Shown: piece after piece, positions 2,842 to 40,780 of the stretch
Layout of the letters: every line of letters begins with the position of its first letter
How positions within the stretch are numbered: position 1 is the stretch's first letter
NCBI GenBank assembly: GCA_035510465.1
Contig: DATKHC010000021.1
Location: forward strand, 130,876-194,875
DNA from: Candidatus Saccharimonadales bacterium
GTDB taxonomy: Bacteria; Patescibacteriota; Saccharimonadia; Saccharimonadales; DATKHC01
Length of the DNA: 64,000 bases
Reading direction: 5' to 3'
The notes under the pieces: generated by a model
What the model was told of the DNA's origin: nothing
The model's input: the letters and a program-made list of their open reading frames with translations, nothing else
Databases searched by the model: none
Position numbers and translations under genes: made by a program

Positions 2842-2882
2842 TAGTTTAATTATATCTTACCGCTTTAGAATTACTATGTATC

Positions 2883-3093
2883 TTATGGTGAACACGATTT
2901 TTAGCTTTGATAAAATGTAAAATTCTTAAAAATCTCTATGATGCGCGGGGCGGGATTTACCTGGAAATCTCTATACACCAGTTTAATAGATTTAAGCGAA
3001 AAACTAGAGGAACTTGGGCTAGTGGAGGTTGGCGGGAAAACAGTATTGATTGAGGATAATATTTCATACGCAAACTTCGAGCAAGGCTAATGA
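2883..3093 (+). repeat. Relic att junction U1: remnant of an LSR 3' end, tRNA-Leu core, and an orphan recombinase tail ORF (2938..3090, 50 aa)
   Basis: 2893-2941 aligns with the last ~50 nt of LSR 15411..17138 (atttttagc..aaaaatctct). 2942-2955 is identical to tRNA-Leu 17089-17102. It continues in the recombinase frame as MMRGAG-FTWKSLYTSLIDLSEKLEELGLVEVGGKTVLIEDNISYANFEQG*. Confidence 0.6.
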
Positions 3094-3160
3094 CCCCTCT
3101 TTTGCATGGCATTCCAAAAAGGTTCTTGACTACTGCCTACATTTTATGTAAACTGTAGGC

Positions 3161-3412
3161 ATGAACAACATACAATATACTATACGTAACGTGCCTGAGG
3201 ATGTAGATAACTCTTTGCGCTTGCGTGCCAAAAAGAATAAACAAAGTTTCAATGCTACGCTTGTGCAGGCTCTTAAACAATCCACAATTAAAGGCATTAA
3301 ACAACCACCAAGTGACTTAGGCTGGTTCTATGGCAGTGGTGGGATCGGAAAAGCTGAGCTTGATACATTCGCTGAGCAGAGGGTGATTGATAAGCGGCTC
3401 TGGGGTTTATAG
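3161..3412 (+). CDS. Putative antitoxin of a type II TA pair (small DNA-binding protein)
   Basis: 83-aa ORF that abuts the PIN gene (stop 3410-3412, next ATG 3413). The N-terminus RNVPEDVDNSLRLRAKK looks like an RHH/FitA-type antitoxin. Assignment is mainly by position. Confidence 0.6.
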   Translation: MNNIQYTIRNVPEDVDNSLRLRAKKNKQSFNATLVQALKQSTIKGIKQPPSDLGWFYGSGGIGKAELDTFAEQRVIDKRLWGL

Positions 3413-3805
3413 ATGAAGATCGCCATTGATACAAATGTCTATTCAGACTTGCAGATTGGTAAAGCTACCCAACTAATGCCAGCCATTAATGGTGCAGAGT
3501 TGCTGATATTGCCGTTTGTCGTCGATGCAGAGTTACGTGCTGGCTTTAAAAAAGGCCAAAATGAAAAAAAGAATTATGAAAAATTACAAAAATTCCAATC
3601 GCTTGATCGCGTATCGGTATTATGGCCAGATGAAGAAACTGACGAGTTATACGCCAAAATTTGGGTAGAGCTGTCCACTCAAGGCAAGCCCATTCCGACT
3701 AACGACGTTTGGATTGCAGCTATATGCTTACAACATAACCTAACACTCGCAACATCTGATGCTCATTTTAATTACGTGCCGCTCCTACGCAAATTACTCC
3801 CTTAA
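3413..3805 (+). CDS. vapC: PIN-domain toxin (VapC family ribonuclease)
   Basis: 130 aa with PIN-like acidic positions (KIAIDTNV.., ..LATSDAHF). Coupled to the upstream small ORF. Confidence 0.75.
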   Translation: MKIAIDTNVYSDLQIGKATQLMPAINGAELLILPFVVDAELRAGFKKGQNEKKNYEKLQKFQSLDRVSVLWPDEETDELYAKIWVELSTQGKPIPTNDVWIAAICLQHNLTLATSDAHFNYVPLLRKLLP

Positions 3806-3854
3806 AGGTATGGCATTCAGACCTCAGCCTTTCCCCGGTAACAGTTATATAGCC

Positions 3855-4008
3855 AACTATTTTAGTCTTGGTGCGCAGCACGAGGGTTACCTGGAAAACC
3901 CTTTATCCCAGTTTAATACATTTAGATGAGAAATTAGAAGAACTTGGACTTGTAGAGGTTGATGGGAAGATCATCCTAATCGAGGATGAGGAGAAAGACT
4001 ATGCGTAG
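3855..4008 (+). repeat. Relic att junction U2: degenerate tRNA-Leu core plus a second copy of the recombinase tail
   Basis: tttagtcttggtgcgcagcacgaggg resembles the LSR end plus the tRNA-Leu 3' end. In frame it reads LVRSTRV-TWKTLYPSLIHLDEKLEELGLVEVDGKIILIEDEEKDYA*. Over 34 codons aligned to U1, I count 11 synonymous and 8 non-synonymous differences. Confidence 0.6.
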
Positions 4009-4486
4009 GTTGCTAAACTTTCGTAAAGTTAATGCTTCGGTCTTACTAAAATCCAAGCTGTACGATGAAACCCACTTCTATGACGCCTTCACCAAAGACC
4101 TTAAACACGCAAAACAAGAAGTCATCATAGAATCCCCCTATTTAACCTGCAAGCGAGCCAATGAACTAGCTCCAGTGTTCCGTAAATTAATAAGAAAAGG
4201 CGTTCGGGTACACGTTAACACCCGTAATCCAAACCATCATGATAAGTATCTGCGTATCCAAGCCTGGATAGCTCTCAAGAAGTTAAAGGACTCGGGAGTA
4301 AAAGTAAGGTTATATAACGATATGCGTCATAGAAAATTAGCCATATTAGACAATACTATTCTCTGGGAAGGCAGTCTTAATGTTCTTTCACAGAATAATA
4401 GTAGAGAGGTTATGCGGCGTACAGAGTCGAAAGAATTATGTAGACAAATGATCAGCTTTGCAAAGCTCAAAAGGTGGTATTGGTGA
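3986..4486 (+). CDS. PLD-family (Nuc-like) nuclease/phosphodiesterase
   Basis: 166 aa with a single HxKxxxxD motif (HRKLAILDNTILWEGSLN). The true start may be ATG 4001, because the 5' end overlaps relic tail U2. Confidence 0.7.
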   Translation: MRRKTMRRLLNFRKVNASVLLKSKLYDETHFYDAFTKDLKHAKQEVIIESPYLTCKRANELAPVFRKLIRKGVRVHVNTRNPNHHDKYLRIQAWIALKKLKDSGVKVRLYNDMRHRKLAILDNTILWEGSLNVLSQNNSREVMRRTESKELCRQMISFAKLKRWYW

Positions 4487-4725
4487 TATACTCGAGATTA
4501 TCTATGAACGGATATGAACTAAACGACAAAGACACCCAAGCTATGGTTCGGTGGCTAAAGATATTCCATCCAGAAAATGCTAACGAAGCTTTTGCAAAGG
4601 CCATGCTTATAAGTATGCAGCTTAACTATAGACAGATGGGCTGGGACGACCCCGACAAGTTAGAGGACCACTACCGCGAATATACTGGCAAAGAATACCA
4701 CGACGACAAAACATCTGATAAATAA
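4474..4725 (+). CDS. Hypothetical small protein
   Basis: ORF overlapping the PLD gene stop. The start is uncertain (GTG 4474/4483 or ATG 4504). No recognisable motif. Confidence 0.4.
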   Translation: MVLVIYSRLSMNGYELNDKDTQAMVRWLKIFHPENANEAFAKAMLISMQLNYRQMGWDDPDKLEDHYREYTGKEYHDDKTSDK

Positions 4726-4769
4726 GCAACCCAAAATAACTACTTCGAAAAACAATGCTGCCGTCACCG

Positions 4770-4872
4770 CTGCAGGACGGACACGCAGATTACGATTGTC
4801 ATTGTCAGGATGATTGACATTCCTGTTGACCTTGCCGTCATTGACATTGCGAATCTGAACGTTGCCGGCCGC
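4770..4872 (-). repeat. DGR template repeat (TR)
   Basis: 103-bp repeat of 5124..5226. All 17 mismatches are at plus-strand T (A in the minus sense). In minus sense it is rich in AAC/AAT codons (NVQIRNVNDGKVNRNVNHPDNDNRN). Confidence 0.9.
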
Positions 4873-5109
4873 CCTTACCTACGCGGTAATCCTGGCACAT
4901 CAACTGAACATGGTCAATCGAGCGCACTATTATTTCAGACACTAAACGTGCCTTACCTCGTAGAACTCCAGTGGTGTTGATTTATAGATCGACCGCCGGA
5001 GTTCATTGGCCTGGGTAGAATACTACCTTCCAATTACTCACTGTTGACGATACTGACCAAAACTAAAATACAAAAGAATCAAAAAAGAGTCAAAGGTTCA
5101 AAGACAAAA

Positions 5110-5943
5110 CTATTCAATTACCACTGCAGGACGGACACGCAGACCACGATAGTCATCGTCAGGAAGATCGACACTCCCGCGGACCCCGCCGCCATAGACA
5201 TAGCGAACCTGAACGTAGCCGGCCGCTGTTAGCGGTTCGCCGGTTAACATAGTCCATGTCCATAGGTCATTGTTTTCTTTTGCAGCTTCTTGACTATCAG
5301 GAAGAGTACTACCTTCCTGAGCTTTAGCATCAGCTACTAGTGCGTCGTAGGCAGCATCTGTCATGCCTTCTCGAGTGTCATAGGTAATCCCGCCAACTTG
5401 TACGTTGAACAAGTCATTGTTTTTCTTAGCCATAACGCTATTGTAGCTTCGAGCTTTATCAAAATCCTTGGTTGGGTTACCAATATCAACACCGTTACCA
5501 GTATGAACAAGTGTAAAGACTTTTTTGCCCTCTTCTGTTTCGTGCTGTACTACACGCAAACTCTCAGAAGTAACACCGTGAGCCTGAAAACGCTCAGCTA
5601 TAACCTTGCGAGCTTCACTGGCTTTGACTTTTTGTTCAAGACTCATAGCGTTCCAGACAGTTTCGCTGGCAAAGTATTCAAATTCTGTTGGAATAGAAGT
5701 TTCAAAAGCACCTCGTCCGGGCATCAGTGCTTCAGCAGCAGATTCGTACAAACGAAAGCCTTGATCCGCCTGGGCAAAGGCTGCTTTCAGCCCCTTTACT
5801 TCACTACCAATAGCAGCTTCGGCTATTTTTGTAGCTGCTTTGTGTCGTTCATTGAAAGCATCATTAGCTTGGTTAGCAAGTTGCCATGCATTGTTATAAT
5901 CGGTTTCTTGCTGAGGTGTAAGTTGTTCCATAGTTTCTCTCAT
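5110..5943 (-). CDS. DGR target (variable) protein with C-terminal VR
   Basis: 277 aa. The last ~35 codons are the VR (..AAGYVQVRYVYGGGVRGSVDLPDDDYRGLRVRPAVVIE*). The ..GLRVRP ending resembles the GFRxx end of C-type-lectin-fold DGR targets. I saw no signal peptide. Confidence 0.85.
   Translation of the reverse strand: MRETMEQLTPQQETDYNNAWQLANQANDAFNERHKAATKIAEAAIGSEVKGLKAAFAQADQGFRLYESAAEALMPGRGAFETSIPTEFEYFASETVWNAMSLEQKVKASEARKVIAERFQAHGVTSESLRVVQHETEEGKKVFTLVHTGNGVDIGNPTKDFDKARSYNSVMAKKNNDLFNVQVGGITYDTREGMTDAAYDALVADAKAQEGSTLPDSQEAAKENNDLWTWTMLTGEPLTAAGYVQVRYVYGGGVRGSVDLPDDDYRGLRVRPAVVIE
5124..5226 (-). repeat. DGR variable repeat (VR)
   Basis: Matches the TR except at 17 TR-adenine positions. 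The invariant GC-rich end (ctgcaggacggacacgcag, 5124-5142) is a candidate IMH-like segment. Confidence 0.9.
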
Positions 5944-5974
5944 CTAAACTTTTATGTATGATATTTTAACACTC

Positions 5975-7036
<1,062 letters not shown>

Positions 7037-7359
7037 TGTCGAGAAAACCTATCAAATATACAAACGTTTGGTTGTTATTGACGCTAGTCTCCCTGATAAG
7101 CATAGACCCATAGGTGAGCAAACTCAGCGCACCATGAATGACTTGCTCCAGCTTTTTTTCATAGCTCAACACGCCCCCAAGGTTCACAAAGGGGCATACC
7201 TACTAAAAGCCCAAGCTCAACTAGAAGTTTTAAATTTGCAGCTAAGGTTATACCTAGATCTTAAGCTTGCCAATGAAACCAAGCTTTTCCAATTACTGGC
7301 CGACTTACAAGAAGTCGGTAGAATGCTTGGTGGTTGGCTGAAAGCTAGTACTTAAAGCC

Positions 7360-8961
7360 TTAGATTTCTAACAGATCGGTCTTGTCCATAGTTAGACCAA
7401 TAACTGCTTGGGCTAATCTTGGATGGTCAATCTTAGGCTGTAGCTCAACGCCAAGTACCCTAACATCATGCACTTTAGTGGGGCCAAAGTTACCAATGAC
7501 CGTAACTGCGTTAGTGTCGTCTATTCGTACTTTGTTAAATAAAGCTTGATTAAGACAGCGCCTTAGCAGTGGATGGGCATTTAAATAGGCCTTTTCAAGA
7601 TTTAAGGTACTTGCTAGATTAACCGCTGCTTGGTAACTTCGTTTTGCGAAAGCACGAGCCCTAGTTGCATCACTAACTACCTCTTTGAGTAAACCTATCT
7701 CTTTATTGACACGCTTTTGCTCAATACCCAACATTTCACTGGATATTTCATCATCATAGAAGGCCTGCAAAATACGCTGGCGCTCCATGATTAGACGGCT
7801 AAGGCGCTTTTCCTGTCTAGTAAGTTCGGCTTTGCCGTTTGTGACCTCATATCGAAGCTGCGCTCGAACCTCTCGTTGCAAAGCAGCACGATCAGCTGAA
7901 GTAAGCTTTGTATTACTAAATTGTTTAGCAACTGCTTCCTCTACTAAGGCTGCCGGAATATAAAGCTGTGTACATTGCTGACCTTGCTGACGACTCAGAC
8001 AATAGAAGTAGGGATAGGCATTTTTATAGCGGTTTATAGTCAGCGTAAATGACATCCTTCGTCCACACTGGCCACAGAAAAGTGTGCCCAATAGGTAATG
8101 ATCGTGGGCTCTTTTTCTAATACCAGCTCGGCGACTATCACTCATGGCTTGAACATTGGCAAAAACAGCTGCAGAGACTAGCGGTTTATGCCTACCTCGA
8201 TACTCGATGCCACAATATTTTACATAACCGGCGTAGTAACGGTTATGGAGCATCTTGGCTATGCCAGATCGACCAATAGGCTTAGACATTGAAGTGCCTG
8301 TACGACGATTACGAAAGCCACGTTTATATAGTTCTTCAGTTATAGTTTTGACACTGTGATCGCCAGTCGCATAACGCTTGAAAGCCCAGGTAATGAGCGC
8401 AGATCGCTCAATATCTATGACAACTGTACGAGCTTCTCGTTCGTTGATTTGTCGACTTACATTAATATAACCAAGCGGTGCACGGTACGGTGTACCACCC
8501 CTTTTAGCTTTTTGAGTTGCACCTTTCAATGCTTCAGCTGCAAGATTACGGCTATAGAACTCGGCAATCGTTGCCATAATTCCATGGAGCAATTTCCCTG
8601 ACGGGGTTTCGTCAATGTTTTCAGTGACCGATACTAGCTGTGCTCCAGCTTTCTGAATAGCCAAGCCAATCATGACATCATCATGTAAGCTTCTCGCTAG
8701 ACGATCTACCTTATGGACAATGATGTAGTCAATTTCTTTCTTGCGATCACGTAGATCATTAAGTAGTCGCTGCAACTCCGGACGATCTGCTGACCTGGCT
8801 GATTCACCTCGGTCAACATACTCGTCAATTACGGTTGACTTTAAACTCTTGGCCTTGCGTTTGCAGGCCTCCCTCTGTGCAGGTATAGAAAAGCCTTCTG
8901 GCTGATCTCCCCGTATTGCTTGATCGAGTGTTGAAACTCGAATATATAATATTGCGTTCAT
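7360..8961 (-). CDS. Large serine recombinase (inverted relative to the other four)
   Basis: 533 aa. N-terminal resolvase motif ILYIRVSTLDQ, recombinase domain, Cys-rich zinc-ribbon region (CGQCGRRM..YYCLSRQQGQQC) and a coiled-coil region. Confidence 0.9.
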   Translation of the reverse strand: MNAILYIRVSTLDQAIRGDQPEGFSIPAQREACKRKAKSLKSTVIDEYVDRGESARSADRPELQRLLNDLRDRKKEIDYIIVHKVDRLARSLHDDVMIGLAIQKAGAQLVSVTENIDETPSGKLLHGIMATIAEFYSRNLAAEALKGATQKAKRGGTPYRAPLGYINVSRQINEREARTVVIDIERSALITWAFKRYATGDHSVKTITEELYKRGFRNRRTGTSMSKPIGRSGIAKMLHNRYYAGYVKYCGIEYRGRHKPLVSAAVFANVQAMSDSRRAGIRKRAHDHYLLGTLFCGQCGRRMSFTLTINRYKNAYPYFYCLSRQQGQQCTQLYIPAALVEEAVAKQFSNTKLTSADRAALQREVRAQLRYEVTNGKAELTRQEKRLSRLIMERQRILQAFYDDEISSEMLGIEQKRVNKEIGLLKEVVSDATRARAFAKRSYQAAVNLASTLNLEKAYLNAHPLLRRCLNQALFNKVRIDDTNAVTVIGNFGPTKVHDVRVLGVELQPKIDHPRLAQAVIGLTMDKTDLLEI

Positions 8962-9103
8962 ACGAACCTCCCTTATTTAATTAGTAAGGGCATGGTGAAC
9001 GCTAGGTAAGGGTTAAGTAAAGTTAATCGTAGTTTATTTCAGCCAAGCCTAAGAATTACGAAGGAGACATAGGCTCCTCCTATTGCTCTGTTACAATTTA
9101 TAC

Positions 9104-9409
9104 ATGTTACGTAAGTGGGCAAGAAGAGACATAAAAATACTTATAGCAAGTTTTTTACTCTTTTGGCTTGGTCAAGGTATTGCGCACATCCCTTTAATCA
9201 TTTCTCGAAATAGTGATAGTGGTTGCATTTCAAATTTGGCGGCATGTACGCTCAGGAGAGATATAACTCTTGTCGATATTGGAGAAGTAGTTGTATATAT
9301 AGCCCTCTTACTATTTTTCATAGGAACCCTCGTACTTCTAGTATTGGCGATAATTTGGGCATATAAAAAGTTAATACACCATAAACGTAAACACACCAAA
9401 GCTTCTTAG
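9104..9409 (+). CDS. Small membrane protein
   Basis: Two hydrophobic segments (ILIASFLLFWLGQGIA; VVYIALLLFFIGTLVLLVLAIIW). The track starts at TTG 9083; ATG 9104 is preferred. Confidence 0.45.
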   Translation: MLRKWARRDIKILIASFLLFWLGQGIAHIPLIISRNSDSGCISNLAACTLRRDITLVDIGEVVVYIALLLFFIGTLVLLVLAIIWAYKKLIHHKRKHTKAS

Positions 9410-9497
9410 GGGAAGTTTGGACAATAAGGCTCGATTATCTGTCGTTGCACATCGACTACAGTTATGTCATAGTATAGTTTAGTAACTGCGTCTTTAG

Positions 9498-10820
9498 GTG
9501 GTTATCATTGCGCTTTTATACTTAGCTATGTCAACAAATCAAACTGAAGCACTTACACCTCCCCACCTATACGATGTAATAGCAGCGGCAGGTAACCACG
9601 AAGTAAAAGCCGCGACCCTTGCTGCTATGGAACCTGACACTGCTTATACTATGACGCCAATATATAACGAAGTTATGGCGCTGCAGGGCAGAAACCCAGA
9701 ATGGAAACTTCACAAAAGAACACCTCATGATTTTTGTAGTAAGTTCGCTTCTATTGGCGGTTTTGCCGAGTTGGTGACCACGGAAAGTGGTGCTACTGCT
9801 TACAGAACTCTGGATGAGGCAGAGAGGCTCGTTCTTCCTTTAGTAGGACAGCTAGTTGGTGTATCTCTAAACGAAGATCCTTCATTGGTGGCATTTTTTG
9901 GTCCTACCCAGACAAATTCAGAGAGAGGGATAAGACCATGCGAACGACGAATCGGGTTAATGGAACTGCTACGTCAAAGTGAGGGTCATGAAGTCAGTAC
10001 GGCTGTTTTGAGCGATAGGTTAGAGTTGGCAACAGCTCATGCCGGTAACATTATTGGCGATTTAGTTGTTAATAATATAGTGAGTAGCGAGGCTAGTGGA
10101 CGAGGCAAACCAACTATTAGCTATAGCCCCGAAAAAGGATTTGAAGGTCTATCAGTCGATCCAAGTCAAGCCAGCGAACTTTTAATAGATATAGTGAATT
10201 TTTTACAAACCTATTTCCATTGTTACCCAGATAGTTCTATTTACAACGAAACAATTGCCCAAGCGCTTATTGATTCAGGACAATACGACGAGCCTTTAAC
10301 TCCTCTCATTAGAGAAGTAAGCGCTAAAACAAACTACTTGGAAAATATGAGAAAAGCCCTAAAAGCCAAGCGAGATATTGATACAGATAATGCTCGTGAA
10401 GTTATTTGGGCAACAGAAACCCAACTGGAAGTTATTAACTCTGTGCTGGATGTTGTAGAAGGGATTCAAAACCCAAGTGACGATTATTTAGACCAAGGGC
10501 TAGAAAACGTTGCCAGAATTAAAAAAGATCCTAAGCTTGTGAAGTATCTCATGCATAAAGCTAAAAGAGACTCGATAGGTCTAAAACGTTCAGGCAAAGA
10601 GCAACAAGCGATACGCACTGCTATTCAGGCAGTGATAGAAAGTTCACCTGTACCTTTATCTAAGACAGAGGTCTGGCAAGCTCTCTTGGATTCCGGCGTA
10701 ATTCTAGACGTAATTTCTGTTTACCAACACCTAAACGAAGCTTTAGACCTAGGCAATATTGCGATGAGTGAGACCAGACAGGGCTATAAATATTCGGACG
10801 TAGGTGCTGGAGACCAGTAG
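9498..10820 (+). CDS. Hypothetical protein
   Basis: 440-aa ORF with no overlapping competitor. The start may be ATG 9528. No motif recognised. Confidence 0.6.
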   Translation: MVIIALLYLAMSTNQTEALTPPHLYDVIAAAGNHEVKAATLAAMEPDTAYTMTPIYNEVMALQGRNPEWKLHKRTPHDFCSKFASIGGFAELVTTESGATAYRTLDEAERLVLPLVGQLVGVSLNEDPSLVAFFGPTQTNSERGIRPCERRIGLMELLRQSEGHEVSTAVLSDRLELATAHAGNIIGDLVVNNIVSSEASGRGKPTISYSPEKGFEGLSVDPSQASELLIDIVNFLQTYFHCYPDSSIYNETIAQALIDSGQYDEPLTPLIREVSAKTNYLENMRKALKAKRDIDTDNAREVIWATETQLEVINSVLDVVEGIQNPSDDYLDQGLENVARIKKDPKLVKYLMHKAKRDSIGLKRSGKEQQAIRTAIQAVIESSPVPLSKTEVWQALLDSGVILDVISVYQHLNEALDLGNIAMSETRQGYKYSDVGAGDQ

Positions 10821-10896
10821 TTTCGAATTAATCTCAATTCCCAGCCAAATTGGTTATGGTTTACATTTTTGGTCTATACCCCGACAATAAGCTAGC

Positions 10897-11457
10897 ATGA
10901 AAGAACCACTTATATTTGTAACGGGTCATCCAACTAAAGCAGAGCAGATTAGTTGGCATATAAATTATCCGATAAAAGCTCACAAATTAGACCTTAAAGA
11001 AATACAGTCACTAGATCCGGAAGAAGTGGTAAGGGCTAAGGCCTTAGAAGCCTATGAACATTTGCATCAAGCTTGTTTGGTTGAGGACGTTTCGTTAAGG
11101 TTTACGGCTCTTGGCAAACTACCAGGAACACTTATCAAATGGTTCTATGAAGAACTATCTACCACAGGCGTATGTAAATTACTGGATGCTTATGACAATA
11201 GAGAAGCTACCGTTAGTTCATACTTTGCGCTAACTACTAATGGTAGTAGCGTTCAAGTATTCCATGCTGACATTAATGGTCGGATTAGTGGTGCCCCGCT
11301 AGGCAATAATGGGTTCCTTAGTGACTCAATCTTTATCCCAGAAGGATTCGACATAACTTATGCTCAAATGACAGAAGAACAACAAAAAGAAAACTCCGTA
11401 CGAAGGCTAGCCCTGCAGGGATTAAGTGACTACCTTGAAAGAAACCCCATTAACTGA
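10897..11457 (+). CDS. rdgB: Non-canonical purine NTP pyrophosphatase (HAM1/RdgB/ITPase family)
   Basis: 186 aa. IFVTGHPTKAEQ.., ..LVEDVSLRFTALGKLPGTLIKW.. and ..NREATVSSYFAL.. follow the HAM1 family pattern. Confidence 0.7.
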   Translation: MKEPLIFVTGHPTKAEQISWHINYPIKAHKLDLKEIQSLDPEEVVRAKALEAYEHLHQACLVEDVSLRFTALGKLPGTLIKWFYEELSTTGVCKLLDAYDNREATVSSYFALTTNGSSVQVFHADINGRISGAPLGNNGFLSDSIFIPEGFDITYAQMTEEQQKENSVRRLALQGLSDYLERNPIN

Positions 11458-11496
11458 GACTCAGTTTTTGTAACTTACGGAACTCAACCTCTAGCC

Positions 11497-12231
11497 TCAG
11501 GACTCGCTGGCAACCTGTCCTAAGAATGACGCAAGTCTAGGGTCATAATCTCCATTGTCTATGGACTGTTGGAGTTTATCTACCGGATTTCCGTTGTGAG
11601 CTCTTTCTCTGTCGATTGCTTCCTGAACCCTCGGATCTCTATGCCCTCTGGAAATGACATATTGTGTACCACCCCTTGGGAGGTCCTTGAATGTTATCCC
11701 TGTAGGATGGCCAGAATCACCAAACTGATAGTCGCTTATTCTACTTAGGGCGAAAGACCACTTAGCAGAGGCCTCAACTACATGGTCGCCATCCGGATCG
11801 AACCATGTTCTGTCTTTTATGAAAAAAACTAAACCAGGCTCCTCTAATTCGGATCCTCGTATTGCTATTCGTTCGACTCGGAAGTCCTCAATCGTCCCAG
11901 ATTGACCTTCTCCGAGATCAGTAAAATGAATCTCGCCACCTATTATTCTTTCTCTTTCTAACTTAAGAGATGGATCCTCAAGATTGGGGTTCGCTAGAGC
12001 CAGTAACTCTTCTAACGTCCGAGGTGCTGTTGGTGCTAACATCTCCTCGTCAAATAATCGTCTTGCTTCTCGGGCAATCTCTATTTCATCTGTAGTTGGC
12101 TTGTAGTCAGGCCCCCATGATATGTCCAATGGGTCATAAGAGCGTGCCATATAACCCCACGTGCCAGGTACAATCTCGTCCCGGCTATCGTAGAGACCAA
12201 TTCCGTATACTTGTGTATCCTCTGCACTCAT
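11497..12231 (-). CDS. Hypothetical protein
   Basis: 244-aa acidic ORF with no recognised motif. Confidence 0.55.
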   Translation of the reverse strand: MSAEDTQVYGIGLYDSRDEIVPGTWGYMARSYDPLDISWGPDYKPTTDEIEIAREARRLFDEEMLAPTAPRTLEELLALANPNLEDPSLKLERERIIGGEIHFTDLGEGQSGTIEDFRVERIAIRGSELEEPGLVFFIKDRTWFDPDGDHVVEASAKWSFALSRISDYQFGDSGHPTGITFKDLPRGGTQYVISRGHRDPRVQEAIDRERAHNGNPVDKLQQSIDNGDYDPRLASFLGQVASES

Positions 12232-12414
12232 TGTTTAAATATTATACAACAAGCATATGGAGGACATTTTTCTTTACGTAGTCACACTGTGCTATCGAAG
12301 CAGTCCTCTAGAAATGACATGTTAATATCTTATTTATATTACATATAAAGAATCTAAGTTTAATTATATAAAAGTTTAATTAATTACCTAAACAGTTAAC
12401 TAAATAGTGTCAAT

Positions 12415-12936
12415 TTAGCACTTAATAAGATCACTTGCACGTATAGCTGGGAAGTCAAACCCAGGACCACCTTTACCCCCAAGAGCCCATGCTTCTTGAA
12501 AGGCTATGTAGTTTTTGTACTTTGTGCTTAAAGGCATTTTTAGTATTTGTATGTTATTCGCGTAAGTGTTCCCATAAACCGTGTTTTCAATGTTATTTAC
12601 GTTTGGTTTGCTAGCGTCAAACATATTTACATCGTAGTTGGCTGTAACATCAGGAGGAGTAGGGGTCTTTGGCAACACAGCTTTCCCTTTGACTTCCGTA
12701 GTACCAGACTCACAAGCATAAAAAGTTAAGCCAAGTTCATTCTTGTTTGGTCCTGAGCTAGGTGGAACTACTGTACCAATTAGTTGCCATCCATGAGGCA
12801 CTGTTGCAACACTTGCTGGTGTAGCGGCATGAGTTTGTGTCATTACGTATGTTCCTACTGCCGCAATAGCTAGGACAGCTACAGCTGCTACTAAATAATG
12901 AGCAACGCCTGACTGATTTAGTTTGTGTATTTTCAT
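12415..12936 (-). CDS. Secreted or membrane-anchored hypothetical protein
   Basis: N-terminal hydrophobic anchor HYLVAAVAVLAIAAVGTYV. Confidence 0.6.
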   Translation of the reverse strand: MKIHKLNQSGVAHYLVAAVAVLAIAAVGTYVMTQTHAATPASVATVPHGWQLIGTVVPPSSGPNKNELGLTFYACESGTTEVKGKAVLPKTPTPPDVTANYDVNMFDASKPNVNNIENTVYGNTYANNIQILKMPLSTKYKNYIAFQEAWALGGKGGPGFDFPAIRASDLIKC

Positions 12937-13088
12937 AATTTTACTATTCCTTTTTATTAGTAGATCTGCCTATATGCTACCCCCCCCGTTGTTAATGCAA
13001 TAGCCAGTAAGGTGGTTGTGGAAATCAAAGTTATGGGGGAGTAGACGGGCTAGCTGGTATAGTGACTACTCCTTGCTACAATAACTAG

Positions 13089-13511
13089 ATGAAAACCTAC
13101 CGATCAAAGTATGGCCAGTTACCCGGAACGTCTCACGCCAATGTCATACGAGCTGCTCGTTATGAATATCATAAGATACAAAAGCGTACCCCTAGACGTC
13201 AAGCCTATGTTCGTTCTAAGTACTTTAAGAACGATAAGATCTTTGTGAATCAGTTTTGGGAGCACCTCAAACAGAAACATGCTGGTGACCAATTACGACG
13301 TGCAAAACTATTCGTCTGTGCTATTGATCTTATTAGGCATAATACGTTAGACCCGGATACTATCTATACCTATACCAACATGAATGTAAGCCTGCACCGG
13401 TTTTATGGTCAGACAAAAGATGGCTTTATGTTTTGTGTACAAATTAGAGAAAACAAGCAATCGGGCAGAAAAGACTTTATGTCAGCTTTTCCCATGTCAA
13501 AATCTAAGTAA
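13089..13511 (+). CDS. Hypothetical basic protein (element-associated)
   Basis: 140-aa ORF, followed by a long imperfect hairpin at about 13522-13563. Confidence 0.55.
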   Translation: MKTYRSKYGQLPGTSHANVIRAARYEYHKIQKRTPRRQAYVRSKYFKNDKIFVNQFWEHLKQKHAGDQLRRAKLFVCAIDLIRHNTLDPDTIYTYTNMNVSLHRFYGQTKDGFMFCVQIRENKQSGRKDFMSAFPMSKSK

Positions 13512-13654
13512 ATGAAAAAGGCCTTCCGCACTGGGTAGCCTAGAAACTACGGGCCGAAGGTCTTCAGTGTTAAATAATACTCCTCTGTATCTGTTATGTC
13601 AAGAGAAAATAAAAAATAGGGACCGCATCCGCAGCCTCCAACCCTTAATTAAAA

Positions 13655-14548
13655 TTATACACTAAATAGCCTACGCCCCTCTTCCCATATTTCAGCTGTA
13701 ATATCTTGTTCTTGTAGTTTTTCGGTGGTGGTAAATCGTATATGGATATTCTCTGGGGTGTCATCATCATATATGTCTGCAATTAGTTTCTTTGTTCTTC
13801 GTTTAGCGTAGATTAAATCAACAAGGTTAGGGCAAACTAACAGTATAGTTGGTGGATTATCGTCAGCTGTTGCGTATTCCCACTCACCATCTTCAAGGTA
13901 AGTTAAATAGGCTTTAAGCCTAAATCTCAACCTATAACGAGGTAAGGTGCTATCAAAGACTTCTAATAGGTAATTCGTGGTTGTTCTACCTTTTTGTTTA
14001 GTAATACATAGGTTTGGACGTAGTGTTTCATGCTCAGCTAGGAAGTGATGGTCGCTATCAGGGTCAATGTAGTCAGCTTCAGTAAGGTAGGTATAGCGGG
14101 TGTTGCTTTTGGTTACTTTATCGCTAGTGTTACCGCCAACGCCACTATCAGTGGCGTTTATTGCTTTAAGTGCTAGGCAACAATCTGCTATTAGAATTGA
14201 CCTATCAATAAAGGTTTGGCTACGCTCACTATCTTTGTAGCGTTTTCTTACTTCTTCTAATGGGTAAAAAGGAGATAGTGTACCATTATCATCCCACCTA
14301 ACAGTCTTTAAGTAACATACCCCGTTAATACCAATATAGTAGATAGCTGGTTTACTCTTCTCAGTAAAATTTGTGGAGTATATCCACTGTACATAATCTT
14401 TATCTCTTAAGTCTTTTAACCAACTAATTATTCGTCTTTTATCTTTATGATTCATTAATGATTGTATCTGTATTCTATTTAAGTATCTATATCTATACAG
14501 ATGTCTTATTATTTCTTGTTGTTTAGTAGTTATCTTAGGTAGTTTCAT
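13655..14548 (-). CDS. Replication-relaxation family protein
   Basis: 297 aa. The N-terminal winged-helix-like segment ITTKQQEIIRHLYRYRYLNRIQIQSL..WLKDLRDKDYV matches the Replic_Relax pattern as I know it. Confidence 0.6.
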   Translation of the reverse strand: MKLPKITTKQQEIIRHLYRYRYLNRIQIQSLMNHKDKRRIISWLKDLRDKDYVQWIYSTNFTEKSKPAIYYIGINGVCYLKTVRWDDNGTLSPFYPLEEVRKRYKDSERSQTFIDRSILIADCCLALKAINATDSGVGGNTSDKVTKSNTRYTYLTEADYIDPDSDHHFLAEHETLRPNLCITKQKGRTTTNYLLEVFDSTLPRYRLRFRLKAYLTYLEDGEWEYATADDNPPTILLVCPNLVDLIYAKRRTKKLIADIYDDDTPENIHIRFTTTEKLQEQDITAEIWEEGRRLFSV

Positions 14549-14929
14549 ATAGTTAAGTTACTAGTAGTAGATATATAAGTTAGATAAGTAAGTATTTGTT
14601 TTAGGTATTAGTTATTAAGGTTTAATTGATTCGGTAGTTTATTCATTTTGCCAAACCCTCCTACTCCACTATTTTTAAAAGGTAGGTAACACAAATTATT
14701 CCACACTATCTTCGATAAACCATGAGTATGTTGTCACCGCCCATGGGGACAATTGATATAGCGCGTTCTTAAGACGTTTTCGGGAAACTATGGCATGCCT
14801 TTTGCTAGTTTTGTATACTAACGATCAAGAGGGTTTACGTGGCTTGCGAGCTAACGGAAGCCTTCTTCTTTAATTTATATGGATATGGCTTTAAGTATCT
14901 CTAAAAGTGCGTGATACAATACAACAATT

Positions 14930-15148
14930 ATGTCAGATGACAAAGCTTCAATAATAAGAACCGGTAAAAAGCTTAGAGCGGCTAGACGAAAGAATCATTT
15001 CACTCAAGCCGAGATAGCAAAGAAAGCCGGTATTAGCGAAAATCATTATGCTCAAATTGAGCGTGGCGAAAAAAACCCCACTATTTCCAACTTCAAGAAG
15101 ATAATCAAAGCTATTGGTGTCATGTCTACTGAAATCCTAGGTGACTAG
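14930..15148 (+). CDS. XRE-family helix-turn-helix regulator
   Basis: 72 aa. FTQAEIAKKAGISENHYAQIERGEKNPT is a classic Cro/C1 HTH. Confidence 0.8.
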   Translation: MSDDKASIIRTGKKLRAARRKNHFTQAEIAKKAGISENHYAQIERGEKNPTISNFKKIIKAIGVMSTEILGD

Positions 15149-15264
15149 AGCTAACTTTAGTTACTTCAAAAAGCTGTGCATAAGTCTGGCGTGGCTCTTG
15201 AAATTATTGCTAAAGCTATAGTAAACTATTGCTATAGGAATAGTTTACAGACAGGGTAACCATA

Positions 15265-15426
15265 ATGTCAGAAACGAGAGGGACGACAAATAAGACAAAG
15301 CAGCCACCAGAGGTTGCCTTATCTGAAGCTGAGCGCATTGAGTTAATCGCTAATTTAATAATCGACATTATTAGCGAGGAGCAAGAAAAACAAATTCCTG
15401 GGGACGAACTATGCAAAGTGAGTTAG
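15265..15426 (+). CDS. Micro-ORF upstream of the LSR (53 aa), candidate accessory/directionality factor
   Basis: Below the track cutoff. It overlaps the LSR start. It shares the helix motif ..ELIANLIIDIISEE.. with micro-ORFs upstream of other LSRs at 31529 and 55444. Confidence 0.35.
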   Translation: MSETRGTTNKTKQPPEVALSEAERIELIANLIIDIISEEQEKQIPGDELCKVS

Positions 15427-17138
15427 ACAGCAAAAACGCCGTAGCAGCTATTCGCGTTTCTACTACCAAACAAGGAACGGACGGTGATTCTCCGGAAGCT
15501 CAAAAAGAACAAATTGAGCGCTTTGCAAGCAATAAAGGTATCACAATCAAGAAGTACTTCGTGTTCATGGAATCAGCTTCCAAAGAGCAGCAACCTATGC
15601 AAGAAGCTATAGACTACTGTAAGAATCCAGAAAATAATATTGAGCTATTTATCATTAAGTCAATTGATAGATTTACAAGAGGCGGCTCACTCTCCTATGA
15701 TCTACTCAAAAACCAATTAGAAAACTGCAAAGTACGTTTAGTAGATATTTACGGCGTTATAAGCTCTGAGAAAATAAATACCCTCGAACACCTTAGAGTT
15801 TCATATAAATGGAGCGTATATTCGCCCAGCAAGAAATCAGAAATTTTAGAAGCTGAACGGTCAAAAGATGAACTACGCGACATTATGAGTCGGATGATTG
15901 GAGCTGAAATACGTTATGCACGTATGGGTTATTGGATGCACCAACCGCCTTACGGTTTTATTAGCGAAAAGCTTGATACTAGACACGGTAAACGTTGCGT
16001 ACTAAAACCTCACCCAACAGAAGCCCAGCTAATTATTAAAATGTTTGAGCTACGCGCCAAAGGCAATCTTTACGAGAAAGAGATAGTAGCCGAGATTAAC
16101 AAACTTGGCTTTAAAACTAGACTCCAGAACGTCCGTAGCAAGCTAGACCATACAAAAATAGTATCCAGGCGTGGTGGTGATCCCCTCACCGTTAAAGCTA
16201 TGCAAAAGTATATACAAAATCCTATTTACGCAGGAGTAAACGTTGAAAGATGGACCGAAGACAAACCTGTTAAGTGTGCATTTGACGGCTTAGTATCAAT
16301 TGAGCTATTTAACCGAGCTAATCAAGGCAAAAAGTTTATTGTTTTAGATGAACAAAACGTCCCAACTATACACAAAAAACTTCCGCCACCTCATCAACTC
16401 AACAAAGGTAGACGCAATCCAGACTTCCCTTATCGTAAGTTTATAGCTTGCCCACAGTGTCAGCGACCACTTCTCGGTAGTGCATCTAGGGGAAAGAACG
16501 GTAAATATTACCCAGCTTACCATTGCAGTAATTACGGCCATTACTTTCGTATTACCAAGCAGGAGCTAGACGAAACAGTTAGTGAGTTCATTGGTAGCTT
16601 ACAAGTATCTCCAAGCCGCATAAACACTGTAATAGATGCTGTCAAAGCCGAATGGCTACGAAGAAACCAGATACAAGGAAATGAGCTTCAAAGCTTAGAG
16701 GTACGCATTAAAGAGCTTCAGATGGAGGCTGAGACTACAATTAGAAAGATAAAGGTGTTAAGTAACGAAACGGTTATTAAATATATGGAGGAAGATATTA
16801 TGAAAATAGAACAGAAAATAAACACACTGACCCATCAAAAGACAGAAACAGAAGCCAAAAAGCCAGTGGATTTTCGTAGGGTCATGACTAAGGTACGTTA
16901 CCTAATCGAAAACCTCGATCAATTACTACTAAAACAGATTGACCCGATTAAAAAAGCTCAGTTTTTTGCAGCAATCTTTAACAGATTACCGTCTTACGAA
17001 GACCTAAAACCTGGAAACCCAAAAACAGCTCTTTTTACAGGGGTGAATCCAATTTTTAGCATAGCTAAAATGGAAAAATCTCTTGTGGTGCGCGGGGCGG
17101 GACTCGAACCCGCAAGCCTTTTGGGCAAGGGATTTTAA
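15411..17138 (+). CDS. Large serine recombinase; its 3' end overlaps tRNA-Leu antisense
   Basis: 575 aa. AAIRVSTTKQ catalytic motif, zinc ribbon CPQCQRPL..YHCSNYGH and a coiled coil. The last 17 codons (..VVRGAGLEPASLLGKGF*) are encoded by the antisense strand of tRNA-Leu. Confidence 0.9.
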   Translation: MQSELDSKNAVAAIRVSTTKQGTDGDSPEAQKEQIERFASNKGITIKKYFVFMESASKEQQPMQEAIDYCKNPENNIELFIIKSIDRFTRGGSLSYDLLKNQLENCKVRLVDIYGVISSEKINTLEHLRVSYKWSVYSPSKKSEILEAERSKDELRDIMSRMIGAEIRYARMGYWMHQPPYGFISEKLDTRHGKRCVLKPHPTEAQLIIKMFELRAKGNLYEKEIVAEINKLGFKTRLQNVRSKLDHTKIVSRRGGDPLTVKAMQKYIQNPIYAGVNVERWTEDKPVKCAFDGLVSIELFNRANQGKKFIVLDEQNVPTIHKKLPPPHQLNKGRRNPDFPYRKFIACPQCQRPLLGSASRGKNGKYYPAYHCSNYGHYFRITKQELDETVSEFIGSLQVSPSRINTVIDAVKAEWLRRNQIQGNELQSLEVRIKELQMEAETTIRKIKVLSNETVIKYMEEDIMKIEQKINTLTHQKTETEAKKPVDFRRVMTKVRYLIENLDQLLLKQIDPIKKAQFFAAIFNRLPSYEDLKPGNPKTALFTGVNPIFSIAKMEKSLVVRGAGLEPASLLGKGF

Positions 17139-17171
17139 GTCCCTCGTGTATACCAATTCCACCACCCGCGC
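17086..17171 (-). tRNA. tRNA-Leu (anticodon UAA), class II long variable arm, CCA encoded
   Basis: Manual cloverleaf: acceptor GCGCGGG/CCCGCGC, anticodon stem AGGGA/TCCCT with loop CTTAAAA, T arm GCGGG-TTCGAGT-CCCGC. Confidence 0.9.
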
Positions 17172-29044: not shown

Positions 29045-29307
29045 ACTACCTACATTATATCTCTGCTACACCTTACAAGTGCTATAATTTCAGCAACGCC
29101 CAAAGCGTTGTAACAATTTGGTATGACCTAACCCCAAGCATTTGTTTGGGTATGGTCGTAAATCCTAATCAGAGCCTTGAGCTAGTTGTTCAGGTATCTG
29201 ATTAGGTCATAGTCCGAAAGGTCTATGGGTGGCCGCAAGGTCGCCGCCTGGCAGCTAGCTCTGTTGTTTTCTGTCAGGCTAACTAACAAAGTCTGAAAGG
29301 AGACAAT

Positions 29308-31794: not shown

Positions 31795-33357
31795 ATGCCT
31801 AAACAAATACTAGCCATAGCATTGTGCAGAGTATCTTCTCTTGAGCAGTTACAAAGTCACAGTCTTGATAATCAAAAAGACAAAGTATTAAGAGCTGCTG
31901 AGGTACTTGGAGCAACCATACCTGCTGATGGTATATGGTCAGGTCATGTATCAAGTAAAAAGGGCGTGAACTATGACCGCAAAGACCTCAAGGAAATGCT
32001 TGAATACTGTAAGAAAACTCCAAATGTTAAGTACCTTATAGTTCAAGAGGTAGATAGGTTTATGAGAAGCCCTGATGAGCAGGTGTATTTCCAGGTCAAG
32101 TTTAGTGAAGAGGTGGGAGTTAAGATATGGTATGCCGATAAGCCTGAGCTTAATGAAGATAATATATATGCTGGCCTGATGAGGTACATGGAGGGGTTTC
32201 GTGCTGCTGGCAGCAATGATGAACGCCAAAGAAAATCAATCACAGGACAAACAAACGCCCTTAACGCTGGAAGATACCCATTTGCTCCAAAGCCAGGCTA
32301 TATTAGGGGGCATATTCCTGGCATACAAGAGCTTCACCCTGTTAGAGGCAAAATACTACAAGATACTTTGATTAGCATTGTTACTAAACGATTATCACCC
32401 ACTCAAGCTCTCATTAAGCTAAATGATAGCGAGTATATGCAGGGTCATTCTCCATACAAAATGGACAAGTTCAGGACTATCGTCACAGACCCTTTTTATG
32501 CTGGAATTGTTGAAATTGATAAACAAGTACAAGTCCGAAACGAAAACGGCTTGCATGAGCCACTGATAACCAAAGAGCAACACAACAAGCTACTTGAGAT
32601 TATGAACGCTAAGAAAAAGGTGCAAGCTGGCCCAAGAAAAGGCGGTAACCCTGAATACCCATTATCAAACCAAGTAAATTGTATTGAGTGCAGAGAGGCA
32701 AGGAATGGCCGACTTGTGGGCTACAAACATGGTAACGGCAAACCTAACTCAACGCTCGTGTATCACAAGTATCGCTGTCGGTCTTGTGCTAGATACCAGT
32801 CCAGAGAGGAACTTCACCCAAAAATTGCTCAAAAGTTCAATGAGAGGCCAGTCACTGATGGCGGTAAGCAAGACCTGTTAGAGGCGTTGAAGATAGTTTG
32901 GGAGCAAAATGAAAGCCAAGTAGAACAAGACATAAACCGCTTGCAACATAGCATTGACCAGCTTGATAGCTTTATTGAAGAGCGAGTAAATGCTGCAACT
33001 GACCCAAAGTACAGTGCGATTGCAACAGACATCATGAAGTTGGTAGAGAAAAAGAAGACCGAACGCTCAAAGTTACAAGAGCAGCTTTCAAACCTTACTA
33101 CAACGGCTGATGAAGATAATGAACGGTTTCTTGATTTTGCCTTTGATTATCTTAACGACATAGGTAAAAACTTCTTCAGCCCTGATGTGTCACTTGAAAA
33201 CAGATTGAGGTGTAAACAAGCTATATTTCCAGCAGGATTTTGGGTTGATAAAAATAGAAAAGTTTACACCCCTGAAATAAGCTATCTTTACAGATTGGCG
33301 GAAAAGAAAAAGGACGCCAGAGCGTCCAATAATTCCCTAATGGTGCGGCATAGCTGA
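31795..33357 (+). CDS. Large serine recombinase (integrated, C-terminally truncated form)
   Basis: 520 aa. AIALCRVSSLEQ motif, zinc ribbon CIECREA..YRCRSC and a coiled coil. It ends SLMVRHS*, 3 codons after the TGGTGC core. Confidence 0.9.
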   Translation: MPKQILAIALCRVSSLEQLQSHSLDNQKDKVLRAAEVLGATIPADGIWSGHVSSKKGVNYDRKDLKEMLEYCKKTPNVKYLIVQEVDRFMRSPDEQVYFQVKFSEEVGVKIWYADKPELNEDNIYAGLMRYMEGFRAAGSNDERQRKSITGQTNALNAGRYPFAPKPGYIRGHIPGIQELHPVRGKILQDTLISIVTKRLSPTQALIKLNDSEYMQGHSPYKMDKFRTIVTDPFYAGIVEIDKQVQVRNENGLHEPLITKEQHNKLLEIMNAKKKVQAGPRKGGNPEYPLSNQVNCIECREARNGRLVGYKHGNGKPNSTLVYHKYRCRSCARYQSREELHPKIAQKFNERPVTDGGKQDLLEALKIVWEQNESQVEQDINRLQHSIDQLDSFIEERVNAATDPKYSAIATDIMKLVEKKKTERSKLQEQLSNLTTTADEDNERFLDFAFDYLNDIGKNFFSPDVSLENRLRCKQAIFPAGFWVDKNRKVYTPEISYLYRLAEKKKDARASNNSLMVRHS

Positions 33358-40716: not shown

Positions 40717-40780
40717 CGGGATTCAAACCCGTGGCCTCTTCCTTGGCAAGGAAGCGCTCTATCAGCTGAGCTACACTCGC
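40705..40780 (-). tRNA. tRNA-Gly (anticodon GCC), CCA encoded
   Basis: Manual fold: acceptor GCGAGTG/CACTCGC, anticodon stem CTTCC/GGAAG with loop TTGCCAA, T arm with GGTTTGAATCC. Confidence 0.9.

Follow-up and report, generated by a model that had tools for sequence, protein, structure and literature searches.

The stretch of DNA analysed here (the window) comprises 64,000 nucleotides from a Candidatus Saccharimonadales bacterium (GenBank assembly GCA_035510465.1, contig DATKHC010000021.1, positions 130,876 to 194,875 of the forward strand). Its region 2883-17171 is best described as the end nearest the tRNA of what would be an array of integrative elements from Saccharibacteria. At the right edge of this region, the gene of a large serine recombinase (LSR) runs into a tRNA-Leu gene. 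At the left edge stand two junctions that carry copies of the tRNA 3' end, each followed by a short open reading frame (ORF), here called a tail. The relation between the recombinase gene and these tails is the subject of this paper. The features are:

17086-17171, minus strand: tRNA-Leu(taa), called by ARAGORN; its 3' terminus CACCA (TGGTG on the plus strand) is the crossover region (attR).
15411-17138, plus strand: LSR gene, integrated form, 575 residues; codons 1-558 come from the element, codons 559-575 and the stop from tRNA-Leu antisense.
2887-2941, plus strand: LSR 3' relic, the last 55 or so nucleotides of an LSR gene, its frame broken by 8 inserted nucleotides and a stop.
2939-2955, plus strand: core of junction 1, TGATGCGCGGGGCGGGA, a copy of the tRNA-Leu 3' end matching at 16 of 17 positions, with an exact 14-mer at 2942-2955.
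2956-3090, plus strand: tail 1, 44 codons and a stop in the LSR frame, FTWKSLYTSLIDLSEKLEELGLVEVGGKTVLIEDNISYANFEQG, within ORF 2938-3090; it scores 38.3 with a hidden Markov model (HMM) of the tail.
3869-3876, plus strand: core of junction 2, TGGTGCGC, identical to the tRNA-Leu 3' terminus at 17086-17093.
3877-4008, plus strand: tail 2, four linker codons (SerThrArgVal), then VTWKTLYPSLIHLDEKLEELGLVEVDGKIILIEDEEKDYA and a stop, in the LSR frame, within ORF 3868-4008; tail HMM score 42.7.

The ORF at 15411-17138 is assigned to the large serine recombinases because of its Pfam matches. The Resolvase domain (PF00239) is found at E=9.9e-9 with 35.9 bits (cut-off 23.3), and the Recombinase domain (PF07508) with 23.7 bits, which exceeds the cut-off of 21.1. 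The zinc ribbon (PF13408) scores 21.1 bits, under its cut-off of 25.3; its C347, C350, H371 and C372 are invariant nonetheless. R15 and S17 of ..AIRVSTTKQ.. are invariant among 32 relatives. A sequence search of the PDB with the LSR gave only a weak match to the catalytic domain of TP901-1, and a fold search was therefore required. Foldseek aligned the AlphaFold2 (AF2) model (mean pLDDT 76.9, with coiled-coil helices at 401-449 and 453-482) to the structures 9y66, 9dxf, 9dxd, 9dxh and, from Bxb1, 9iu2, with E between 1.8e-17 and 6.8e-12 over about 560 columns. These are cryo-EM structures, and the modelled fold is that of a full-length serine integrase.

The C-terminus of this recombinase, ..VVRGAGLEPASLLGKGF, is written in part by the tRNA gene. 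The overlap of the two genes comprises 17 codons (17085-17135) and the stop (17136-17138), and the protein reads ..V V R G A G L E P A S L L G K G F before it ends. An earlier note on this DNA, made from the sequence by inspection, had derived this end from tRNA antisense; that origin stands. Its count of 11 residues does not, because V-V-R-G-A-G is also encoded by the tRNA.

That note also reported that a 14-nucleotide segment of the tRNA-Leu, TGCGCGGGGCGGGA (17089-17102), recurs at 2942-2955. These are indeed its only two sites in the window, and 100 shuffles of the window gave no match with one mismatch permitted. The homology to the LSR 3' end that the note had placed in the 50 or so nucleotides before the 14-mer was recovered as an alignment of 2887-2941 with 17042-17088, whose score was reached by 0 of 2000 shuffles. 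To the left of 2887, tblastn finds no LSR remnants. At junction 2, the tRNA sequence in common is limited to TGGTGCGC. A second LSR 3' relic, to the left of junction 2, looked plausible by eye but was dropped, as 707 of 2000 shuffles equalled its gapped-alignment score.

Both tails read in the LSR frame as the note had quoted them, the second within 3869-4008; in tail 2, 40 open codons follow the four linker codons. The two make a 119-nucleotide repeat with 73% identity, the second copy being 3869-3987. Pfam has no match for either.

What the tails are is best seen in homologues. The LSR body (15411-17102) joined to tail 1 was used to search a protein collection, which returned 1709 homologues; the best 120 of these were inspected (59-72% identity; one is labelled Candidatus Saccharibacteria). 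They have two kinds of C-terminus. About 95 of the 120 end in tRNA antisense, stopping a few residues past a conserved ..KSLMV with TPRGIEPLLPG, TSRRIELRLPG, PAGFEPAIF and the like. Peptides such as TPRGIEPLLPG are the translated antisense of a tRNA T-arm. About 15 of the 120 run without interruption into a tail that is homologous to those of the window. The earlier note had proposed a search for LSR homologues that end in this way, and they exist: examples are ..MVTSKGFTWKQLQPAIKQLDQLLEEAGLGDE and ..LVTSPGMERNTLSLQELDEKLEELGLVEVNGKIILL.., and also ..HMVTSKGFTWKQLQPAIKQLDQLLEEAGLGDE and ..HLVSSASRTWNTLYPDLISLSDKLGELGIEEYFDV.

The same two endings are seen at greater distance. A profile search of 1.8 billion cluster representatives (50% clusters) gave 327 proteins at E<=1e-30, with 109 full-length among the best 150. 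By a regex classification, in which a few tail calls are doubtful, some 60 of the 109 have the tRNA-antisense end and some 27 have a tail starting with W-N-x-(L/F/W). Since contiguous tails occur both in close homologues and in cluster representatives, the LSRs of this family ancestrally ended in the tail. Tails end in ..NFEQG, ..KDYA, ..ADNA, ..SEDE and ..DEEQ, among others; none ends in LAA.

Further, one and the same protein body can carry both endings. This is the case for bodies that are 100% identical (P0053/P0073, P0050/P0112 and P0038/P0079/P0083; P-numbers denote homologous proteins, L-numbers the loci of relatives). In P0004, P0018 and P0028, bodies 97-99% identical are followed by two different tails and one tRNA end. 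At the DNA level, the LSR gene of locus L003, which has a tail, is 99.3-99.4% identical to those of L087 and L088, which lie at two different tRNA-Glu genes. All three share an upstream module (DUF3768, then ORFs of 76, 239 and 51 residues). They are identical up to ..CTTATGGTGA and unrelated from the following base, so that the breakpoint falls exactly after TGGTGA. The crossover is thus confined to the common TGGTG(A). Where the earlier note had looked to excision junction reads, public assemblies supply junction evidence in these breakpoints and in the identical bodies with either ending.

The samples behind these loci have sibling names (tail form, L003/L005: ERZ22666180, ERZ22666189; integrated form, L088: ERZ22666178, ERZ22666135; all DTU_2022_.._NL_RO_..). 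This suggests that the tail and tRNA-integrated states of the same LSR coexist in one sampled community.

The genomic surroundings of relatives say where each ending is found. A scan of GTDB, with one genome per species, found 340 relatives, and the best 80 loci were used, nearly all of them in metagenome-assembled genomes (MAGs) of Saccharimonadales or Patescibacteria. The LSR 3' end lies within a called tRNA, on the opposite strand, in 60 of 79 (Glu 46, Phe 6, Gln 5, Arg 2, Leu 1); five more have a tRNA-antisense peptide at a contig end, and three have a contiguous tail. The integrated ORFs keep every recognised domain, and most of the GTDB loci inspected have this ORF intact.

Upstream of integrated LSRs, in frame and on the LSR strand, detached tails stand at L015, L079, L025, L053, L033 and L056, with a further one at the left edge of L002. 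Every detached tail lies directly 3' of a 6-16-nucleotide copy of the tRNA 3' end. The blocks of attL/attR identity are likewise 6-16 nucleotides long, each of them starting with TGGTG, which is the tRNA terminus CACCA read in antisense. A scan of 1.36 Mb for the DNA motif TGGTG-N18-TGGAA, made without regard to ORFs, found 13 sites on the LSR strand, all of them open for 28-45 codons, and one site on the other strand. A search for attL by exact repeats at 59 integrated loci found three true sites (the window, L015 and L079). It found few because cores are often 6 nucleotides and many elements exceed the 10-kb flank; the tail HMM and the motif scans were better at locating detached tails.

These observations lead to an explanation that we hold with a probability of roughly 85%: the LSR gene spans its own attP, and integration at a tRNA detaches the last codons of the gene. 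The design is common in Saccharibacteria.

One might think instead that the tails derive from some conserved gene of the chromosome that has nothing to do with recombinases, which the earlier note had named as an outcome that would refute it. No point in support of this was found. Homologues in which LSR and tail are contiguous, and identical bodies with both endings, refute it. Tails are met in only two settings, fused to an LSR or, where an integrated LSR lies downstream, directly behind a copy of a tRNA 3' end, and always on the LSR strand. They belong to no Pfam family, and a protein search with tail 2 only, made with a word index too coarse for 46 residues, returned a single 98% identical hypothetical protein of 45 residues. 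This is VMR34_05220, from a public Saccharimonadales MAG that is presumably the same or a very close genome. A chromosomal origin of the tails can be given almost no weight.

A different kind of evidence comes from the way in which the tails have diverged. The earlier note had counted 11 synonymous and 8 non-synonymous differences in 34 codons; a recount gives the same numbers, with 19 of the 34 codons differing. By codon position, the differences are distributed 8/3/16. The Nei-Gojobori method gives sd=17 for S=22 and nd=10 for N=80, that is, pS 0.77 (saturated) and pN 0.125, with a Fisher p of 1.3e-8. Stops interrupt all five other reading frames of the tails.

Both window tails fall in a subgroup with the signature ..L(D/S)EKLEELGLVE(V/I)xG(K/Q)xxL.., which also includes the fused tail of L066 and the detached tail of L015, each at a tRNA-Glu. 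These four related tails, from three genomes, allow six pairwise tests, and so the formal dN/dS comparison that the note had called for. In the six pairs, pN/pS is 0.15-0.41 for codons 1-34 and 0.12-0.28 for codons 11-34, with p from 7e-5 to 1e-9; synonymous sites are saturated in 5 of the 6.

This substitution pattern indicates that the tail evolved under purifying selection, and that the selection acted while each tail belonged to the full-length LSR of its own element lineage. The synonymous bias between the window tails would accordingly record long purifying selection on a full-length C-terminus in two element lineages. The signal is one of history as recombinase C-termini, and not necessarily of present-day selection at the current positions. 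The central idea of the earlier note, that the tails are recombinase C-termini selected as peptides and separated by integration, is thereby upheld by fused homologues, by bodies with both endings, and by the dN/dS tests.

The conservation might, of course, be that of DNA. Two points favour the view that the similarity of the tails reflects a recombinase binding site, the P' arm of attP: the P' half-site must fall in the first 25 or so nucleotides past the core, and TGGAA stands at a fixed 23 nucleotides from TGGTG at all junctions. However, the conservation spans 120 nucleotides, far past the half-site of an LSR. The signal in codons 11-34, which lie 50-120 nucleotides from the core, is equally strong (pS 0.88 against pN 0.11), and the differences are spread 8/3/16 over the three codon positions. 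Between the window tails and those of L066 and L015, nucleotide identity over codons 1-34 is 44-55%, near random, yet the encoded peptides are 47-59% identical. Conservation of a DNA site cannot explain the selection signal, because the signal is just as strong beyond any half-site. As an account of the tails, this one is very improbable.

Nor is it credible that the two tails are a recent local duplication, with a substitution pattern that arose by chance. They do lie 930 nucleotides apart in the same orientation, as such a duplication would leave them. But a Fisher p near 1e-8 leaves little room for chance, the PLD nuclease module described below lies 3' of tail 2 only, and related tails occur in other genomes at tRNA-Glu. 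The saturation of synonymous sites (pS 0.76-0.88) implies, in turn, that the copies are old. The chance of a recent duplication is negligible.

The ends of the elements, in the window and in relatives, place the tails within a larger arrangement. The flanking genes in the window are:

3161-3805, plus strand: VapBC-type toxin-antitoxin pair, with an RHH antitoxin at 3161-3412 and a PIN toxin at 3413-3805.
3986-4486, plus strand: PLD-like nuclease gene (PLDc_2, 2.7e-13); its start overlaps the end of tail 2.
4474-4725, plus strand: conserved 83-residue ORF, left-end module; homologues at the equivalent position in 6 loci.
13655-14548, minus strand: 297-residue ORF, right-end module; a distant Replic_Relax relative, at the same position in 45 loci.
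14930-15148, plus strand: HTH_3 regulator, right-end module (Pfam 2.7e-15); 29 loci.
15265-15426, plus strand: conserved 53-residue ORF, overlapping the LSR start; 29 loci; aligned with counterparts at L001, L002 and L003.

In relatives, the left end consists of the tail, a PLDc_2 gene that begins about -30 to +20 nucleotides from the tail stop, and then a small conserved ORF. The PLDc_2 gene follows the tail at L025, L078, L033, L002 (twice) and L015, and at L001 as well. The right end consists of a gene of Replic_Relax type on the opposite strand, in many cases an HTH gene, an ORF of 46-53 residues that overlaps the LSR start, and the LSR itself. The order in the window (13655-14548, HTH, 53-residue ORF, LSR) corresponds to this. 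BLASTP relates the 297-residue ORF to the Replic_Relax genes of L001 and L002 (1e-13 and 3e-12). The 53-residue ORF, for which Pfam has no match, is a candidate accessory or directionality factor.

Another reading is that the tail is an independent small gene of 45-50 residues, expressed from attL, perhaps as an accessory or directionality factor, and only incidentally in the LSR frame. The core supplies a possible start for each detached tail ORF (ATG ATG at 2938, TTG GTG at 3868 and in relatives), the detached copies are all intact, and one public genome lists the tail 2 ORF as a hypothetical protein. Against this stand the 15 or so close homologues and 27 or so distant representatives in which the tail is fused to the LSR without a stop. 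Further, the left side of the core at attL is occupied by unrelated flanking DNA of the host, with terminator hairpins in L079 and L015. As a consequence, no conserved ribosome-binding site or promoter can travel with the tail. A promoter scan of about 2600-4600 found 7 sites against 4.7 expected, which is background. An independent gene is therefore unlikely.

The sequence evidence thus shows attP within the LSR gene. The free form reads ..KSL(M/V)V, then four linker codons, then xTW(N/K)xL.. for 25-45 further codons, and stops at the start of the PLD-nuclease gene or overlapping it. Recombination takes place inside the 5-6 nucleotides TGGTG(A/C), the antisense of the tRNA CACCA 3' end. After integration, a body of about 560 codons remains at attR, stopping a few codons into tRNA antisense (here after 575 residues, ..RGAGLEPASLLGKGF), and the tail is left at attL, at the head of the PLD-nuclease gene.

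For the window, this would make the resident element about 13.2 kb long, from junction 2 (3869) to the tRNA (17093). Its excision via junction 2 would restore an LSR of 604 residues followed by the PLD gene, together with an intact tRNA-Leu. The attP predicted from junction 2 is ..GAAAAATCTCTTGTGGTGCGCAGCACGAGGGTTACCTGGAAA.., that predicted for the junction 1 variant is ..GTGGTGCGCGGGGCGGGATTTACCTGG.., and the predicted empty site is ..TAGTCTTGGTGCGCGGGGCGGGACTCGAACC...

The earlier note had called both junctions relics. This holds for junction 1 as the older of the two. Junction 2 is probably the functional attL of the resident element, because tail 2 precedes the conserved PLDc_2 gene and 83-residue ORF and because the left flank is not LSR-like. 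Junction 1 (2887-3090) is most likely an older attP-type junction, with P-arm relic, core and P' arm; its stretch 2887-2941 would, most likely, be the P arm of an element otherwise deleted. The junction may have been left by neighbouring elements that were since deleted, the VapBC pair excepted. Intact arrays of this tandem kind are present in relatives: L002 has the form tail-PLD-..-LSR+tail-PLD-.., and L078 and L026 share one contig, where an LSR with its tail is followed, 15.6 kb on, by a second LSR that ends in a tRNA-Glu. The VapBC pair of the window matches FitA-like_RHH (2e-7) and PIN (2e-15) in Pfam, has no counterpart in the related loci compared, and is most likely the sole remnant of the element that owned tail 1.

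Several observations weigh against this explanation or limit it. The longer exact repeat (14 nucleotides) is at junction 1, not at junction 2, and the resident LSR could therefore pair with either. The order of the integration events in the window, read from the letters alone, cannot be reconstructed. No circular form or empty site of the window's element was observed. In relatives, every contiguous tail form on a long contig may represent a tandem junction, and none a free circle. Dyad symmetry, which might have marked the att half-sites, is undetectable in 6 attP sequences, where at most 8.3 of 24 positions are complementary at any centre, against 6 expected. The fixed TGGAA (Trp-Asn/Lys codons), 23 nucleotides from the core, could be under a double constraint, through its codons and as a DNA binding site. 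Finally, in the AF2 model of the tailed LSR, a disordered linker (559-566) corresponds to the codons at the core and the tail forms a helix (567-583) and a hairpin; the confidence of this tail model is moderate (block-mean pLDDT about 59-76), and the model carries no contact information.

The tail-bearing isoform would be made only from an intact attP, whether in a circle or at a tandem junction, and the tail-less isoform only from an integrated copy. We infer that these two forms are not alike in activity, direction or stability. The LSR and PLD genes would form an operon only while attP is intact. The topology of the element would in this way feed back on its own recombinase and on the expression of the downstream PLD gene.

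A tentative proposal, which we regard as possible although doubtful, is that the tail is a topology-gated switch. Here, the full-length protein would be competent for integration; integration would automatically put tRNA-antisense residues in place of the tail, giving an isoform of altered direction (competent for excision), activity or stability, and would disconnect the PLD gene. Rowley et al. reportedly found in 2008 that changes in the C-terminal domain of phiC31 integrase relax its direction control, which makes a role of the tail in direction plausible, if unproven. Were the proposal true, direction control would be set by the position of attP inside the gene, instead of, or besides, a separate recombination directionality factor (RDF).

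Known systems provide partial precedents. Among canonical LSRs (Bxb1, phiC31, TP901-1, A118), the resolvase, recombinase and zinc-ribbon domains with a long coiled coil, the fold, and the short identity of attP and attB are all as here. To our knowledge, canonical large serine integrases have attP outside the int ORF. The present family differs from them: its attP lies in the ORF, it inserts at the CCA end of tRNA genes, and past the coiled coil it has an extra helical region of about 80 residues together with the tail. Serine integrases have been described as not targeting tRNA genes (PMC7192596; PMC9262239).

The closest likeness is to the "suicidal" integrases of archaea (SSV1/pTN3/pT26-2-type), where attP lies within the int gene, an arrangement stated to be exclusive to archaea in a 2021 review of archaeal tyrosine recombinases (PMC8371274). 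In both cases attP is in the ORF, integration at a tRNA partitions the gene, and only the free element gives the complete enzyme. The archaeal enzymes, however, are tyrosine recombinases (Phage_integr_3), whereas the one described here is a serine recombinase from bacteria (Saccharibacteria). Further, theirs are split into Int(N) and Int(C), neither of them active, whereas here only the last 25-45 codons are detached, and the catalytic and DNA-binding domains all stay in one intact, conserved ORF.

A second likeness is to the integration-dependent immunity systems of cluster G/N/P mycobacteriophages (Broussard et al., 2013). According to their summary in PMC9262239, attP lies there within the repressor gene, at its 3' end, and integration at a tRNA removes an ssrA-like tag. 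As far as that account extends, both systems have attP in a gene 3' end and attB at a tRNA 3' end, both replace a C-terminus, and both have two isoforms with different properties that report the integration state; an RDF is not evident there. On the same account, the phages differ in that the gene split is that of the repressor, the integrase is a tyrosine integrase, the part lost is a short tag for degradation (-LAA), and the core measures 35 bp. In the present family, what is lost is a helix (plus hairpin) of 25-45 residues with acidic ends (..EDEEKDYA, ..ESEDE), and the core is 6-16 bp.

A third comparison is with ICEclc, in which an outward-facing promoter drives the integrase in the circular form only. 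There too, the circle joins distant sequences and expression differs by state, as it would for an LSR-tail-PLD operon across an intact attP. In ICEclc, however, a promoter is placed before a gene that stays as it is; in the present elements, it is the recombinase's own coding sequence that is altered.

In the literature covered, neither tRNA-targeting LSRs in Saccharibacteria nor an LSR ORF that spans attP is described; most subscription journals lay outside that coverage, and the absence is not proof. With this proviso, the split of a recombinase gene by its own attP extends from archaeal tyrosine integrases to bacterial serine integrases, and serine integrases are able to target tRNA CCA ends (and tmRNA, in more distant LSRs of the window) with a core of about 6 nucleotides. 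The direction control of serine integrases is a central mechanistic question, also for genome-writing tools, and the family offers two natural isoforms to compare. Identical recombinases in different tRNA genes and in attP form also mark it as a recently mobile element family in Saccharibacteria, which have tiny genomes and few genetic tools; with their short att sites, the LSRs are candidates for use as integration tools in Patescibacteria. In annotation, LSR genes of about 570 residues ending in ..GIEPxLPG and orphan hypothetical proteins of 30-50 residues beside PLD genes should be seen as halves of one gene.

Two further labels were considered for the elements and rejected. A phage origin was sought in 2.9 M viral contigs, which gave only one partial match at 33% identity; the elements are therefore not recognised phages. 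The label of integrative and conjugative element (ICE) was set aside as well, since the window's element is without a type IV secretion system (T4SS) and the T4SS genes beside relatives may be chromosomal. Between 3877 and 17093 there are no T4SS genes, only the distant Replic_Relax-like ORF. At L002 (11881-16978) and L003 (12302-20175), T4SS genes (TrbC, TrbL, PrgI, TraC, VirB4, CHAP, TraG) follow the tail, PLD and HTH genes. The T4SS of Patescibacteria is treated as chromosomal and essential (PMC12102498); from its place beside an attP-type junction one may ask whether an element carries some of its copies.

The cargo of the elements is of a defence or variability type, with the toxin-antitoxin pair, the PLD nuclease and a diversity-generating retroelement. 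The last lies inside the island at 4766-7355, with a template repeat at 4766-4877 and a variable repeat at 5120-5231, both on the minus strand; 17 of the 20 mismatches between them affect adenines of the template. A 277-residue ORF (5110-5943, minus strand) with no Pfam match has the variable repeat as its 3' end. The reverse transcriptase is at 5975-7036 (minus strand) and a bAvd-like ORF at 6999-7355 (plus strand). A (CTGT)24 run at 6403-6498 lies within the reverse transcriptase ORF, in frame as (TDRQ)8, and could switch the gene on or off by slippage. Also inside the resident element, an LSR gene at 7360-8961 (minus strand, 533 residues), with strong Pfam matches and about 24% identity to the tRNA-Leu LSR, may be cargo or a nested element.

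Further LSR ORFs lie elsewhere in the window. A second, unrelated one in the 39220-40780 region (498 residues, ..NPNLWCE at its end) has its last 12 nucleotides in the 3' end of a tRNA-Gly(gcc) (40705-40780, minus strand); the design recurs there, in another frame. In the 55705-57632 region, a third LSR ORF (538 residues, ..ASNAHLV followed by ELPEYCPPG..) reads 86 nucleotides into the 3' end of a tmRNA gene (57236-57632, minus strand; 71 bits with Rfam, missed by ARAGORN), and resembles an element with a serine recombinase that has inserted into tmRNA. A fourth, at 31795-33357 (520 residues), ends in ..SLMVRHS at TGGTGCGG (33341). The breakpoint motif of the family is present, with no RNA gene called there, and the site may be a decayed junction.

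Two matches to LOOT RNA (RF03000), at 29125-29245 (84.6 bits) and 54510-54623 (63.9 bits), each lie 1-2.5 kb from an LSR gene and may belong to these mobile elements. At the left end of the window, positions 1-1600 contain six copies of a 37-nucleotide repeat at a spacing of 162-345 nucleotides; the minus-strand translation is Kelch-like, the ORFs are short and broken, and the region may be a pseudogene.

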